Origin: Escherichia coli
GTDB taxonomy: Bacteria > Pseudomonadota > Gammaproteobacteria > Enterobacterales > Enterobacteriaceae
Reading direction: 5' to 3' (one strand)
NCBI RefSeq assembly: GCF_003334765.1
Contig: NZ_QOWT01000011.1
DNA length: 64,000 nucleotides
In this document: positions 11,240 to 33,103 of the stretch, piece by piece
Numbering within the stretch: position 1 is the stretch's first letter
Layout: each line of letters opens with the position of its first letter
Translations under genes and position numbers: made by a program
Notes under the pieces: model-generated
The model's database searches: none
Told to the model about the DNA's origin: nothing
The model's input: only the letters and a program-made list of their open reading frames with translations

Positions 11240-12124
11240 TTACTTTGTAATGAGATCGGGGTCAACTTCGCTTAACCGGCTTCGTTTTGACAGGTTGCCG
11301 GTCTTTCTTTTTTTCACTTTCGCCAGTTCTTCCGCAGAGTAATGCGACGCGACATCCAGCCGTCGAAGCCCCATTTTGATGTACTCGCTGTTGATCTCAA
11401 TACCAATGAATTTTCGTCCGCTGGCGATGGCTACGGCACCGGTAGTAAAGCTACCAGCAAACGGGTCGAGAACGATATCGCCTGGGTTGGAAGAGGCGAG
11501 AATAATGCGTTTCAGTAAGGCTTCCGGTTTTTGCGTCGGGTGGTTTTCATATTCATCCATCAAATAACGCACGCGCGGAAAATCCCAAACGTTACCCGGT
11601 ACTTTTTGATGATTGTAAGGCTGTGGAGGATTTTTGCGATAATCGATCAACGCGCGCTGCGATCCGGTTTTGGCTTCTACCAGAATAGCATCACCGTTGA
11701 ATGTGTAGTTCTTTGCGTCTTTCACCATCATCAGGATGGGTTCGTACATGGAGCCGTAGTGTTTTTTCGCCTGCACTCCAGAACTGTCATATGACCAGAC
11801 GATGCGACTTTTGATGGTAAAAAGCTTGCGGCACTGGAGATCGATAAAGGGCATGTTTTCCGTACTGTTCATGATGTACATGCTGCCCTGCTTTTTCAGA
11901 ACGCGGTGGCACTCTGCAATCACTTCAAACAGCCAGTCGATAAACAGATCTTCTTTCCAGGCTTCGATCAGACCATCAAAATTTTTACCGATGTTATATG
12001 GTGGGTCGGCAAAGATCAGATCGACACTTTCGGCGGGGATCTTTTTAAGTTCGGCAAGCGCATCACCGTGAATAATGGTCTTAGCTTCATTACCAAACCG
12101 GGTCGGTTCACATCCTGTTCTCAT
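11240..12124 (-). CDS. yhdJ: DNA adenine (N6) methyltransferase, orphan
   Basis: ORF with DPPY motif (FADPPYNIG) and SAM-binding region; 294 aa from MRTGCEP. Confidence 0.9.
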   Translation of the reverse strand: MRTGCEPTRFGNEAKTIIHGDALAELKKIPAESVDLIFADPPYNIGKNFDGLIEAWKEDLFIDWLFEVIAECHRVLKKQGSMYIMNSTENMPFIDLQCRKLFTIKSRIVWSYDSSGVQAKKHYGSMYEPILMMVKDAKNYTFNGDAILVEAKTGSQRALIDYRKNPPQPYNHQKVPGNVWDFPRVRYLMDEYENHPTQKPEALLKRIILASSNPGDIVLDPFAGSFTTGAVAIASGRKFIGIEINSEYIKMGLRRLDVASHYSAEELAKVKKRKTGNLSKRSRLSEVDPDLITK

Positions 12125-13497: not shown

Positions 13498-13825
13498 GAG
13501 TTAAGAAATGACCATACTGTGACTGCAAGGCGGCGTATATTACGCATTTTTTGCACGAGATGAAAGGCCAAACTTTGACCAATCCTCTGAGATGGATCAA
13601 AGAATTGCATTTAAAATGAGCGTGGTGCGATAATTACTCATAAAAATCATCATATTAGAAAATAGTGACTAAAATTTACACTCAAAGAAATTTGAGTAAG
13701 TTCTCAATTTTTCTTTATGAATGAAAATTTTGGCACGCAAATTTGCGTAAATAATCGGCAAATTTACGTGCCTTTTGTGAGCTTGCTCGCACTTCGCCCC
13801 GCGTCACCCTACGGCGATGCGAAGG

Positions 13826-14718: not shown

Positions 14719-16170
14719 TTATTTATCAGTAGTCAAAACGGTAGCTTGCGGGACGGATGTACCGAAACGGTTTCCGACCAGGAAAGCCAGCAAACTTAGT
14801 AGTAACGAGGGCACGATAGGGTGGAAGCCCAGGTACTGAATATTCAGCGTCGCGAGTACGGCATACAGCACGCCGCCAACGATCATCGCACTTAGCGCGC
14901 CTTTGGCGTTGGCGCGTTCCCAGTAAAGACCCAGCACCAGCGGCCACAGGAAAACGGCTTCCAGCCCACCGAAGGCCAACAAATTCAGCCAGATGATCAT
15001 TTCTGGCGGCTTCCAGGCGGCAAGCAGCAGCAACGCGCCGAGAACTAACGTAATTACCGCCGACATCCGCTTCAGACGCGTCTCGTTTTGCATTTGATCC
15101 GGACGGATATTCAGATAGAGATCTTTAATGATCGTAGCGGAACTTTGCAGCAGTTGGGCGTTAATTGTCGACATGATCGCAGCCATCGGTGCAGCCAGGA
15201 AGATCCCGGCAGCAAACGGTGGCAGCACTTTTACCATTAACGTTGGGATCACCAGGTCCGGTACGGTGAGATCGGGGATCACCGCCCGACCTAACGCTCC
15301 GGCCAGGTGCATACCGAACATCAGAATTGCGACCACAATCGTACCGATGATGATCCCCCGATGTACGGCTTTGCTGTCTTTATAAGAGATACAGCGCACC
15401 GCAGTATGCGGCAGGCCAATCACGCCAAAACACACCAGTACCCAGAACGACGTCATAAAGGCAGGCGACAGAATATCGTCAGCGCCTTGTGGCGTAACCA
15501 GTTGCGGATCGATGGTTTGCAAGGTCTGTACTGCGTTACTTAAGCCGCCAGCGGCATGTACTACGCCAATAAGCAGCACAACGGTGCCAATCAGCATCAC
15601 AAGCCCTTGCATGGTGTCGTTCAGCACGCTGGCGCGAAAGCCACCAAAGGCGGTATATAACGCAATGCTGATACCAAAAATCAGCAGCCCGGTTTCATAA
15701 GGAATACCCGCCGCGGTTTCCAGCAGGCGCGCACCGCCGATAAACTGCACGGTCATCGCACCAACGAACGCAACCAGCAAACTCAAACTCGCCAGCCACA
15801 CCAGAAGACGACTCTGGTAGCGGGCAAACAGCATATCGTTCAGCGTCACTGCATTGTAGCGGCGCGCAAGAATCGCAAACTTCTTGCCGAGAATACCGAG
15901 TGAAAGCCAGACTGCAGGAAGCTGAATCATCGCCAGCAATACCCAGCCCAGCCCGTATTTATAAGCAGCTCCTGGCCCGCCGATAAACGAACTGGCACTG
16001 ATATAGGTCGCGGTGAGCGTCATCGCCAGCACAATACCGCCCATAGAGCGGCTGCCGAGGAAATACTCATTAAGGAAGGTGCCGGTGCTCCGTTTACGCA
16101 TCGCATAAACCGAGATACCGAACACCACCACCAGATAGGCGACCAGCGGTAGAATTACTTCAAGCTGCAT
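14719..16170 (-). CDS. panF: Sodium/pantothenate symporter
   Basis: Polytopic SSS-family ORF; start placed at [13 protein letters not shown] (483 aa). Confidence 0.92.
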
Positions 16171-27518: not shown

Positions 27519-30500
27519 GTGAGGCGATTGCCGGGGATTTTACTGCTTACTGGAGCCGCGCTCGTTGTGATCGCTGCCCTGCTGGTTAGCGGCCTGCGTA
27601 TTGCTTTACCGCATCTTGACGCCTGGCGTCCGGAAATCCTCAACAAAATAGAATCCGCGACTGGCATGCCGGTAGAAGCCAGTCAGCTCTCAGCCAGCTG
27701 GCAGAATTTTGGCCCGACGCTTGAAGCACACGACATCCGTGCAGAACTAAAAGATGGCGGCGAATTTTCGGTTAAACGCGTTACTCTGGCGCTGGATGTC
27801 TGGCAGAGCCTGTTACATATGCGCTGGCAGTTTCGCGACCTCACTTTCTGGCAGCTGCGCTTTCGCACCAACACTCCTATCACCAGCGGTGGTAGTGATG
27901 ACAGTCTGGAAGCCAGTCACATCAGCGATCTGTTTCTTCGTCAATTTGACCATTTCGATCTTCGCGACAGTGAAGTCAGTTTCCTGACGCCATCCGGTCA
28001 GCGCGCCGAGCTGGCGATCCCACAACTCACCTGGCTGAACGATCCACGTCGACACCGTGCGGAAGGCCTGGTAAGCCTCTCCAGCCTTACCGGACAGCAC
28101 GGCGTGATGCAGGTGCGCATGGATTTGCGCGATGATGAGGGGTTGTTAAGCAATGGTCGCGTCTGGCTCCAGGCGGATGACATCGACCTGAAGCCGTGGC
28201 TCGGTAAATGGATGCAGGACAATATTGCGCTGGAAACGGCACAGTTCTCCCTTGAAGGCTGGATGACGATCGACAAAGGCGATGTAACCGGCGGTGACGT
28301 CTGGCTGAAACAGGGCGGTGCCAGCTGGTTGGGCGAGAAGCAAACGCATACGCTGTCGGTGGATAATCTGACCGCGCATATTACGCGTGAAAATCCGGGC
28401 TGGCAGTTCTCTATTCCCGATACACGGATCACGATGGACGGCAAACCCTGGCCGAGCGGAGCATTGACGCTGGCCTGGATACCGGAACAGGACGTTGGCG
28501 GCAAAGACAATAAACGCAGTGACGAACTCCGGATTCGCGCCAGTAATCTGGAGCTGGCAGGCCTGGAGGGCATACGCCCGCTGGCCGCGAAACTTTCACC
28601 TGCACTGGGTGATGTTTGGCGCTCCACACAACCGAGCGGCAAGATTAACACTCTGGCGCTGGATATCCCGCTTCAGGCGGCAGACAAGACCCGTTTTCAG
28701 GCATCGTGGAGCGATCTGGCCTGGAAGCAATGGAAATTATTACCGGGTGCGGAACACTTCTCCGGGACGCTTTCCGGCAGCGTTGAAAATGGTTTGCTTA
28801 CCGCGTCGATGAAGCAGGCAAAGATGCCTTACGAAACGGTATTCCGTGCGCCACTAGAAATCGCCGACGGCCAGGCAACTATAAGCTGGCTGAACAATAA
28901 CAAAGGTTTCCAGCTGGATGGGCGTAATATTGACGTTAAAGCCAAAGCCGTCCATGCGCGCGGCGGTTTTCGTTACCTGCAACCTGCTAACGATGAACCC
29001 TGGCTGGGTATTCTGGCTGGCATCAGTACCGATGATGGTTCACAAGCCTGGCGCTATTTCCCGGAAAACTTGATGGGTAAAGACCTGGTTGATTACTTAA
29101 GTGGCGCGATTCAGGGCGGTGAAGCGGATAACGCGACGCTGGTTTATGGTGGCAATCCGCAACTCTTCCCCTATAAACACAACGAAGGTCAGTTTGAAGT
29201 GCTGGTGCCGCTGCGCAACGCGAAGTTTGCCTTCCAGCCGGACTGGCCTGCATTAACTAACCTTGATATTGAACTGGACTTTATTAACGACGGTTTATGG
29301 ATGAAAACCGATGGCGTTAATCTGGGCGGCGTGCGCGCGAGTAATCTTACCGCAGTGATCCCTGACTACTCAAAAGAAAAACTGCTGATTGACGCTGACA
29401 TTAAAGGTCCGGGTAAAGCCGTTGGCCCTTACTTTGATGAGACACCGCTGAAAGATTCTCTGGGTGCGACCCTGCAAGAACTCCAGCTCGACGGCGATGT
29501 GAATGCTCGCTTACATCTTGATATCCCGCTGAACGGCGAACTGGTAACCGCGAAAGGTGAAGTGACGCTGCGTAATAACAGTCTGTTTATCAAACCACTC
29601 GACAGCACCCTGAAAAATTTGAGCGGTAAATTCAGCTTTATCAATAGCGATCTGCAAAGTGAACCACTGACAGCAAGCTGGTTTAATCAGCCGTTGAACG
29701 TGGATTTTTCCACCAAAGAAGGGGCAAAAGCCTACCAGGTAGCGGTAAACCTCAACGGTAACTGGCAACCGGCGAAAACCGGCGTTCTGCCTGAAGCGGT
29801 GAACGAAGCATTGAGTGGCAGCGTGGCGTGGGATGGTAAAGTGGGCATTGATCTGCCTTATCATGCTGGTGCGACCTATAACATAGAGCTGAACGGCGAT
29901 CTAAAGAATGTGAGCAGTCACTTACCTTCACCGTTAGCCAAACCTGCGGGTGAACCACTAGCGGTAAACGTTAAGGTTGATGGCAATCTCAACAGCTTTG
30001 AATTAACCGGACAGGCTGGTGCGGATAATCATTTCAATAGCCGCTGGTTGCTCGGTCAAAAGCTGACGCTCGATCGTGCTATTTGGGCGGCAGACAGTAA
30101 AACGCTCCCGCCGTTGCCGGAACAAAGTGGCGTTGAACTCAATATGCCGCCGATGAATGGTGCCGAGTGGCTGGCCCTGTTCCAGAAAGGCGCTGCGGAG
30201 AGTGTCGGTGGTGCAGCGAGTTTCCCACAACACATAACGTTACGTACGCCTATGTTGTCACTGGGAAATCAGCAATGGAATAACCTGAGTATTGTTTCGC
30301 AACCGACGGCAAATGGCACCCTGGTTGAAGCGCAAGGGCGTGAAATCAACGCCACGCTAGCGATGCGTAATAACGCGCCGTGGCTGGCGAATATCAAATA
30401 TCTTTATTACAACCCGAGCGTGGCGAAAACTCGTGGTGATTCAACGCCGTCATCACCTTTCCCGACAACGGAGCGCATTAACTTCCGTGGCTGGCCGGAC

Positions 30501-31319
30501 GCCCAAATACGATGCACAGAGTGCTGGTTCTGGGGGCAAAAATTCGGTCGCATTGACAGTGATATCACCATTTCTGGCGATACGTTAACGCTGACCAATG
30601 GACTGATTGATACTGGTTTCTCGCGGCTTACTGCCGATGGTGAATGGGTTAATAATCCGGGGAATGAACGTACCTCGCTGAAAGGAAAACTGCGCGGGCA
30701 GAAAATTGATGCCGCCGCAGAATTTTTTGGTGTCACGACGCCCATACGCCAGTCGTCATTTAATGTGGATTACGATTTACACTGGCGCAAAGCACCCTGG
30801 CAGCCAGATGAAGCGACGTTGAATGGCATCATTCATACTCAACTGGGTAAAGGCGAAATTACCGAAATCAATACCGGACATGCCGGGCAATTGCTGCGCT
30901 TATTGAGCGTAGATGCCCTGATGCGTAAGCTGCGTTTTGATTTCAGAGACACTTTTGGCGAAGGGTTCTATTTTGACTCCATTCGCAGCACCGCGTGGAT
31001 TAAAGACGGCGTTATGCACACCGACGACACGCTGGTGGATGGCCTGGAGGCGGATATCGCCATGAAAGGGTCGGTAAATCTGGTACGTCGCGACCTGAAT
31101 ATGGAAGCGGTTGTCGCACCAGAGATTTCTGCGACGGTGGGCGTGGCTGCGGCTTTTGCGGTTAACCCCATTGTTGGCGCGGCAGTGTTTGCCGCCAGTA
31201 AAGTGCTGGGGCCGCTGTGGAGCAAAGTCTCCATTTTGCGCTATCACATTTCGGGTCCGCTGGACGATCCGCAAATCAACGAAGTGTTGCGCCAACCGCG
31301 TAAAGAAAAAGCGCAATGA
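27519..31319 (+). CDS. yhdP: Large AsmA-like inner-membrane-anchored periplasmic protein
   Basis: 1266 aa ORF with GTG start, N-terminal TM anchor (LPGILLLTGAALVVIAALLV) and long beta-rich body. Confidence 0.92.
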   Translation: MRRLPGILLLTGAALVVIAALLVSGLRIALPHLDAWRPEILNKIESATGMPVEASQLSASWQNFGPTLEAHDIRAELKDGGEFSVKRVTLALDVWQSLLHMRWQFRDLTFWQLRFRTNTPITSGGSDDSLEASHISDLFLRQFDHFDLRDSEVSFLTPSGQRAELAIPQLTWLNDPRRHRAEGLVSLSSLTGQHGVMQVRMDLRDDEGLLSNGRVWLQADDIDLKPWLGKWMQDNIALETAQFSLEGWMTIDKGDVTGGDVWLKQGGASWLGEKQTHTLSVDNLTAHITRENPGWQFSIPDTRITMDGKPWPSGALTLAWIPEQDVGGKDNKRSDELRIRASNLELAGLEGIRPLAAKLSPALGDVWRSTQPSGKINTLALDIPLQAADKTRFQASWSDLAWKQWKLLPGAEHFSGTLSGSVENGLLTASMKQAKMPYETVFRAPLEIADGQATISWLNNNKGFQLDGRNIDVKAKAVHARGGFRYLQPANDEPWLGILAGISTDDGSQAWRYFPENLMGKDLVDYLSGAIQGGEADNATLVYGGNPQLFPYKHNEGQFEVLVPLRNAKFAFQPDWPALTNLDIELDFINDGLWMKTDGVNLGGVRASNLTAVIPDYSKEKLLIDADIKGPGKAVGPYFDETPLKDSLGATLQELQLDGDVNARLHLDIPLNGELVTAKGEVTLRNNSLFIKPLDSTLKNLSGKFSFINSDLQSEPLTASWFNQPLNVDFSTKEGAKAYQVAVNLNGNWQPAKTGVLPEAVNEALSGSVAWDGKVGIDLPYHAGATYNIELNGDLKNVSSHLPSPLAKPAGEPLAVNVKVDGNLNSFELTGQAGADNHFNSRWLLGQKLTLDRAIWAADSKTLPPLPEQSGVELNMPPMNGAEWLALFQKGAAESVGGAASFPQHITLRTPMLSLGNQQWNNLSIVSQPTANGTLVEAQGREINATLAMRNNAPWLANIKYLYYNPSVAKTRGDSTPSSPFPTTERINFRGWPDAQIRCTECWFWGQKFGRIDSDITISGDTLTLTNGLIDTGFSRLTADGEWVNNPGNERTSLKGKLRGQKIDAAAEFFGVTTPIRQSSFNVDYDLHWRKAPWQPDEATLNGIIHTQLGKGEITEINTGHAGQLLRLLSVDALMRKLRFDFRDTFGEGFYFDSIRSTAWIKDGVMHTDDTLVDGLEADIAMKGSVNLVRRDLNMEAVVAPEISATVGVAAAFAVNPIVGAAVFAASKVLGPLWSKVSILRYHISGPLDDPQINEVLRQPRKEKAQ

Positions 31320-31379
31320 TTTGACGAGGGCGCGTAATTGCCCCAATCTCATAGGATAATCGTTGCCAAAGGCCAACGA

Positions 31380-31617
31380 GCCAGAACATAACCGTAGGTC
31401 GGATAGGGCGTTCACGCCGCATCCGGCAGCCGTTGCCTGATGCGACGCTGTGCGTCTTATCAGGCCTACAAACGGAACATAACCGTAGGTCGGATAAGGC
31501 GTTTACGCCGCATCCGACAGCCGTTGCCTGATGCGACGCTGTGCGTCTTATCAGGCCTACAAACCGGAACATAACCGTAGGCTGGATAGGGCGTTCACGC
31601 CGCATCCGGCAGCCGTA
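31380..31617. repeat. Cluster of about 2.5 tandem REP/BIME units (period about 91 bp)
   Basis: Repeated ...aacataaccgtaggtcggatagggcgttcacgccgcatccggcagccgttgcctgatgcgacgctgtgcgtcttatcaggcctacaaa... between yhdP and tldD. Confidence 0.9.
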
Positions 31618-31642
31618 AAAAATCCTCTACTGCAGTAACTAA

Positions 31643-33103
<1,461 letters not shown>

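Follow-up and report, generated by a model that had tools for sequence, protein, structure and literature searches.

What is the repeated sequence that separates yhdP from tldD in Escherichia coli, and does it have a function? We address these questions in a window of 64,000 nucleotides, the whole stretch of DNA that was analysed. The gene yhdP lies on the + strand at positions 27519-31319 (1266 amino acids, stop codon TGA), tldD follows on the same strand at 31658-33103 (481 amino acids), and a spacer of 338 nt lies between them. The limits of both genes are those of the list of open reading frames and of the RefSeq annotation, for yhdP the annotation of identical DNA; the gene names come from RefSeq records of K-12 E. 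coli that are 100% identical to the window over 961 nt. The original prediction placed about 2.5 copies of a unit of roughly 91 bp at 31380-31617. Tandem Repeats Finder agrees: it reports a single tandem array at 31370-31616, with period 91, 2.7 copies, 91% matches and a score of 424. A repeat search finds three in-register copies, starting at 31384, 31475 and 31567 and thus spaced by 91 and 92 nt, together with internal palindromes; the palindrome quoted in the prediction is the exact reverse complement of positions 31393-31427.

Read from left to right, the spacer is a regular alternation of two types of REP. Its left part, at 31320-31393 on the + strand, is unique, except that its last 11 to 13 nt, the GAACATAACC region, recur inside the array as the linker from Z2 to Y. 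The first REP, Y1, occupies 31394-31430 on the + strand, 74 nt past the stop codon of yhdP. It has its 5' GTAG on that strand, two mismatches to the Y consensus, a 2x2 internal mismatch and a predicted RNA hairpin of -18.7 kcal/mol. A linker of 4 nt, CGTT (31431-31434), leads to the second REP, Z2a, at 31435-31469 on the - strand: it matches the Z2 pattern, is inverted with respect to Y, has its 5' GTAG on the - strand and folds at -20.2 kcal/mol. The linker AAACGGAACATAACC at 31470-31484, a copy of the ancestral left flank, separates it from Y2 (31485-31521, + strand, three mismatches to the Y consensus, -18.8 kcal/mol). A second CGTT at 31522-31525 then precedes Z2b (31526-31560, - strand), which has the same sequence as Z2a and consequently the same pattern match and hairpin energy of -20.2 kcal/mol. 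After the linker AAACCGGAACATAACC at 31561-31576, the array closes on a terminal Y, Y3, at 31577-31613 on the + strand (-19.2 kcal/mol), identical to the only REP of strain H10. The remaining 44 nt, at 31614-31657 on the + strand, are unique and form the leader of tldD. All linkers from Y to Z2 are thus 4 nt long, and those from Z2 to Y are 15 or 16 nt long, of the form AAAC(C)GGAACATAACC.

Catalogues of REP and BIME arrays go back to the 1980s and 1990s. A REP is an imperfect stem-loop palindrome of 30 to 40 nt, whose non-complementary stem bases are required by TnpA(REP); the classes y, z1 and z2, the GTAG tag and the definition of BIME-2 are those of Ton-Hoang 2012 (PMC3333891). The repeat between yhdP and tldD is a canonical E. 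coli BIME-2 of five REPs, Y-Z2-Y-Z2-Y, and shows every defining feature that can be tested, as the reading of the spacer as a tandem REP/BIME array implied. The five REPs are 35 to 37 nt long, and each folds on its own into a hairpin, with energies between -18.7 and -20.2 kcal/mol and a mismatch inside the stem that is 2x2 in each Y and 1x1 in each Z2. All five have the tag at their foot, as GTAGG on the + strand in Y and as its complement CCTAC in Z2. Their order and strands, Y(+) Z2(-) Y(+) Z2(-) Y(+), alternate in inverse orientation, and in predicted folds a neighbouring Y and Z2 can pair into one long hairpin of about -45 kcal/mol. The fold of the whole spacer has an energy of -144.6 kcal/mol (z = -7.67).

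The array is also wholly extragenic and belongs to a dispersed family: used as a query, it has a median of 7 to 19 matches in an E. coli genome, and its Z2 REPs are near-identical to those of REP325, sucB-sucC and araA-araD. The Y and Z2 patterns match three and two times in the 64-kb window, always within the array, where 100 shuffles lead to an expectation of 0.00, so that chance is excluded for these matches. The Z2 pattern was derived from the array itself. Two observations validate the Y consensus: it matches without mismatch in E. albertii and MOD1-EC7003, and the Y REPs of REP325 are near-identical to it. Members of the other family of the same palindrome superfamily, BIME-1 or RIB-RIP, combine Y with Z1 REPs and a long L linker, and it is these that bind IHF (Ton-Hoang 2012, PMC3333891). 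The REPs here are of type Z2, with no Z1 and no long L linker, and the IHF consensus WATCAANNNNTTR is absent from both strands of the spacer even when one mismatch is allowed. The IHF binding that the original prediction listed among the known properties of REP arrays is consequently a property of BIME-1 that does not carry over to this spacer.

A few other sequences in or near the spacer deserve mention. Two mechanical open reading frames cross the array, one of 109 amino acids at 31276-31605 on the - strand and one of 44 amino acids at 31440-31574 on the + strand; both are almost certainly spurious, and no RefSeq record annotates a gene there. Upstream of the array, 40 nt past the yhdP stop codon, positions 31360-31379 form a small hairpin, TCGTTG...CAACGA. 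It is kept in six Escherichia lineages, two of which have a compensatory change from G-C to A-U; as this is the sole covarying pair, the signal is weak. At the start of the window, positions 1-351 hold a 5S rRNA whose 5' end is cut, a tRNA and a second 5S rRNA, which together are the tail of a ribosomal RNA operon.

The array is not new. It is named in a 2018 study that mapped gyrase cleavage, so that the identification given in the original prediction is correct but was already known. The form described there, the BIME-2 between tldD and yhdP of MG1655 and W3110 (Sutormin 2018), has the same locus, the same flanks, the same Y and Z2 units and the same linkers, and its units are 96-100% identical to those of the window. 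The two differ in size: seven REPs in a spacer of 429 nt for MG1655 and W3110, five in 338 nt for the window, the missing 91-bp unit being one that carries the variant combination a,t,G. Taken as a whole, we consider it very probable that this locus is a BIME-2 that acts as a strong gyrase site, gains and loses units of 91 bp, and is a target of IS1397.

Consider the size of the array. The spacer is 155 nt long in H10, with one Y REP, 338 nt in the window and in GM4792, with five REPs, and 429 nt in MG1655 (coordinates 3392029-3392457), J53 and S43, with seven: these lengths differ by exact multiples of the unit. A census of 5426 complete E. coli genomes, with queries built to let only certain alleles through a cut-off of 80% coverage, counted directly 107 genomes with five REPs (2.0%), 1833 with five or seven, and 3676 with one or five. 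By subtraction, about 1726 genomes have seven REPs (31.8%) and about 3569 have one (65.8%), and the remainder, about 24 genomes (0.4%), have other alleles. An independent query made of the flanks only divided 59 evenly spaced records into three allele classes of 39, 19 and 1, and no sampled record showed an allele with three REPs. The prediction that copy number may vary between strains thus holds, and the units both conform to the Y and Z2 consensus with its GTAG and belong to an array that is variable.

The allele with five REPs is the MG1655 array minus one 91-bp unit, in register. Its carriers come from unrelated backgrounds: E. coli W and its derivatives, a BL21 derivative, isolates from poultry, frog and human, and the K-12 strains EMG2, WG1, MC1061 and GM4792. 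Close relatives of these carriers, namely MG1655, DH10B, MC4100, J53 and other BL21 derivatives, have seven REPs, and the gain or loss of units consequently looks recurrent. The alleles with one, five and seven REPs result from the in-register gain or loss of whole 91-bp units, which would come about by replication slippage or by unequal recombination between near-identical units, possibly catalysed by TnpA(REP).

The five REPs of the window might also be a collapsed version of a true K-12 array of seven. The records of MG1655, J53, DH10B and MC4100 all have seven, and GM4792, the strain that agrees with the window, also lacks 300 nt at REP325. Against this, the K-12 strain EMG2, assembled independently, shows both loci in the same short form, with 357 nt at REP325 and a yhdP-tldD spacer of 338 nt, and five REPs are also found in WG1, in MC1061, in three separate assemblies of the E. 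coli W lineage and in many wild isolates. Moreover, 8 k-mers at k=21 and 18 at k=31 are found in the allele with seven REPs and not in the allele with five, and a collapse would mean that the assembler had thrown them away. We therefore regard a collapse as quite improbable, and the difference between five and seven REPs as probably real.

The REP325/naRNA4 array, between yjdM and yjdN, shows a size difference of its own. In coordinates of the extracted sequences, it is 357 nt long and identical in GM4792 (14733-15089) and EMG2 (11731-12087), versus 657 nt in MG1655 (1743-2399), a difference that amounts to the in-register loss of three 100-nt units. Since both loci vary, two BIME-2 arrays differ between sublines of K-12. 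The array between yhdP and tldD is of modest practical use: it helps to annotate a spacer without genes, it behaves as a variable-number tandem repeat that separates laboratory K-12 sublines, and its three alleles could serve as a natural series for the effects of BIME-2 copy number on gyrase and on the expression of neighbouring genes.

We now turn to the origin of the array. When species-representative genomes were scanned with the pattern, five Escherichia lineages came back. In E. albertii, E. whittamii, E. sp. E1V33 and E. sp. MOD1-EC7003, a lone Y REP stands at this same place in a spacer of 148-155 nt, and in two of these four lineages (E. albertii and MOD1-EC7003) this REP is the canonical Y consensus with 0 mismatches. 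The left flank of the array also borders the single Y REP of the other Escherichia species, and the linker from Z2 to Y repeats that ancestral flank, CCGGAACATAACC. Such a copy implies that the array grew by local duplication rather than through repeated insertions of a mobile unit.

One record complicates the polarity of these events. NZ_JAATUR010000001.1, labelled E. coli SCPM-O-B-8794, has yhdP and tldD flanks that are 95.0% and 95.8% identical to those of K-12, which makes them as divergent as those of E. albertii; despite its label, it probably belongs to a cryptic Escherichia lineage. It nevertheless has a homologous array of five REPs, whose units are 88-89% identical to the K-12 units and 97% identical to each other. 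Unit identity is 96-100% within an array versus 88-89% between arrays, an excess that indicates concerted evolution. The outgroups favour a single Y REP as the ancestral state. Given the array of SCPM-O-B-8794, it is equally possible that an ancient array has repeatedly collapsed to one Y, and the array may also have moved between lineages by recombination.

What, then, does the array do? The original prediction mentioned gyrase binding as a general property of REP arrays, and for this very element it is published: Sutormin 2018 (PMC6379681) names the BIME-2 "between tldD and yhdP" as the home of multiple gyrase cleavage sites. Table DS3 of that paper lists, for the tldD-yhdP element of 307 bp in W3110, 35 sites with ciprofloxacin, 13 with rifampicin and ciprofloxacin, 3 with microcin B17 and 10 with oxolinic acid; the corresponding totals for all 263 BIME-2 are 104, 56, 8 and 55. 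These counts belong to a W3110 derivative with the seven-REP allele, to which the 307 bp correspond, and not to the five-REP allele of the window, and they could be distorted by reads that map ambiguously among near-identical units. A further set of elements in Table DS3 sums to 30 ciprofloxacin sites, which leaves at most 39 for all remaining BIME-2; since 11 of these are assigned to three other elements of the table, none of the remaining elements can reach 35 on its own, and tldD-yhdP is the top BIME-2 for gyrase in this table. Among the elements listed, the next highest is aceA-aceK with 8 ciprofloxacin sites, and the REP325 array, of 582 bp, has 0.

The same paper reports that y REPs are a far more frequent target of gyrase cleavage than z2 REPs, and that blocking transcription with rifampicin raises the gyrase signal at BIME-2 (Sutormin 2018, PMC6379681). 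Published work on this locus shows, at the level of DNA, that gyrase binds the array strongly and cleaves it, mainly in the Y REPs and independently of transcription. A strong, transcription-independent gyrase site, already known and measured on the seven-REP allele of W3110, is the best-supported function of the tldD-yhdP array.

The reasons for such a large excess of sites can be sought in a comparison with similar elements. REP325 (yjdM-yjdN, RF02564) is likewise a BIME-2 in which Y and Z2 alternate, oriented on the transcribed strand as they are here, and it too lies between co-oriented genes. Its units are about 100 nt long with linkers of 13 and 17 nt, versus 91 nt with linkers of 4 and 15 nt at yhdP-tldD, and it has no ciprofloxacin site where yhdP-tldD has 35. 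The elements sucB-sucC, aceA-aceK and araA-araD of MG1655 also alternate Y and Z2 in this way on the transcribed strand, lie between genes within operons or gene pairs and are cleaved by gyrase in vivo, but have only 6, 8 and 3 ciprofloxacin sites respectively, and their linkers are locus-specific sequences of 7 to 14 nt. As the longer REP325 has 0 sites in Table DS3, the length of an array does not explain the excess. Linker length was a second candidate: measured from the end of the Y consensus, the spacing from Y to Z2 is 7 nt at yhdP-tldD, sucB-sucC and araA-araD, and 13 nt at REP325. This candidate was rejected, because aceA-aceK has 8 sites with a spacing of 14 nt. One could still conjecture that some feature of the array besides its length makes it a super-site, and that copy number measurably tunes, differently from strain to strain, local supercoiling or domain structure, breakage induced by fluoroquinolones, the expression ratio of yhdP to tldD, or several of these; we hold this to be unlikely.

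The array may also matter once it is transcribed. The scan for intrinsic terminators found none in the spacer, where the last REP is followed by GTAAAAAA, and the scan for sigma-70-like promoters found none at its thresholds in the spacer or anywhere in 31100-31800. Since the two genes are co-oriented and neither kind of signal is predicted between them, the array is probably transcribed, as a 3'UTR of yhdP and leader of tldD. Hairpins in this transcript could hold up 3' exonucleases or reduce read-through in part, as has been shown at REP325. The same Y-Z2 pairs are matched by the Rfam model naRNA4 (RF02564), which was built on REP325, on the + strand, over Y1 and Z2a at 31397-31466 (71.1 bits) and over Y2 and Z2b at 31488-31557 (77.3 bits), with a gathering score of 59.5 bits. 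One RNA-level effect known for other REPs has little bearing on this locus. Liang, Rudd and Deutscher (2015) reportedly found REPs that stall ribosomes at the stop codon. The hairpin has to be close for this, some 15 nt at most past the stop codon of the upstream gene, and the distance here is 74 nt.

Three other readings of the array compete with that of a gyrase site. Suppose that its main selected role were played at the level of RNA: the 3'UTR would shield yhdP mRNA from 3'-5' exonucleases, termination into tldD would be partly Rho-dependent, and copy number would tune the ratio of yhdP to tldD. REP325, with the same Y/Z2 architecture on the transcribed strand, does stabilise the mRNA of yjdM, its upstream gene, and attenuates transcription into yjdN, in part through Rho (Harris et al.). 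The intercistronic REP hairpins of malE-malF, also between co-oriented genes, have a stabilising effect shown by experiment (Newbury et al. 1987, as reported in a paper that cites it). According to the literature, tandem gene pairs split by REPs have a higher ratio of upstream to downstream expression, and REPs are found at 24% of Rho-dependent 3' ends. At yhdP-tldD the hairpins are stable, the genes co-oriented and the spacer free of promoter-like sites, which speaks for such a role; the roles of terminator and stabiliser, measured at REP325, are extended to it by analogy. Against a main role of this kind, the Term-seq tables of Adams 2021 assign no 3' end to tldD and a single one to yhdP, internal to that gene, which leaves none with either label in the spacer, with the caveat that repeats are hard to map. 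Furthermore, tldD is well expressed in MG1655 downstream of seven REPs (base mean about 6976), and the effects of REPs depend on context, with no global lengthening of mRNA half-lives (Harris et al.). The influence on the stability of the yhdP 3' end put forward in the original prediction thus comes from analogy, and gains nothing from the search for intrinsic terminators or from the labelled 3' ends. That RNA is the main level of selection appears possible but doubtful; a function at this level is unproven, and would be secondary to the gyrase role.

The array could, on the other hand, have no selected function at all: a neutral or selfish repeat, seeded by the REP mobilisation of TnpA-REP/RAYT and resized by slippage, for which gyrase binding is a by-product. 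Since about two in three E. coli genomes and four further lineages of Escherichia have a single REP, the array as such is dispensable. K-12 sublines themselves differ in copy number, units are more alike within arrays than between them, as expected of concerted evolution driven by slippage, and TnpA(REP) cleaves and recombines BIMEs in vitro (Ton-Hoang 2012, PMC3333891). Yet the single Y REP has kept its place throughout the tested Escherichia lineages, with flanks that are 93-98% identical to those of K-12, a homologous array persists in a lineage with flanks just 95% identical, and the element is an extreme outlier for gyrase cleavage. We give the neutral reading about the same modest chance as a main role in RNA. 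Far less credible is the conjecture that the Y-Z2 pairs are nucleoid-associated RNAs of the naRNA4 type that condense the chromosome with HU, a role proposed for REP325 (Qian 2015, PMC4550694). The two Rfam matches above the gathering score speak for similarity of sequence and structure between Y-Z2 pairs and for that alone: the model matches in effect any such pair, and gives 50.8-55.8 bits even on the opposite strand. Neither deletion nor overexpression of REP325 changes nucleoid volume, HU does not join cruciform DNA and naRNA4 in a stable ternary complex, and contacts between REPs are absent from Hi-C data (Harris et al. 2026). The nucleoid model is thus largely contradicted, and we consider it very improbable for this array.

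The gyrase site is, finally, also a landing site for an insertion sequence, another property that the original prediction ascribed to REP arrays and that strain BH100 illustrates at this very locus. Its record NZ_CP024650.2 has an IS1397-family element of 1.43 kb in the yhdP-tldD spacer (positions 2452-4041 of the extract), with a transposase gene annotated as frameshifted; the related record BH100N is without it. The insertion lies exactly in the apical loop of the single Y REP of this spacer, with TCA duplicated. It agrees with the known preference of IS1397 for REPs (cited in PMC1525189) and shows that REP loops at this locus are targets of the element. Sequences related to the array also occur outside this locus: positions 13684-13760 of NZ_CP161804.1, a 23.9-kb record of E. 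coli Z135-5, hold a stretch of 76 nt that is 88.5% identical to part of it, and seven plasmid-borne places match it, so that BIME-like sequence is occasionally found on plasmids.
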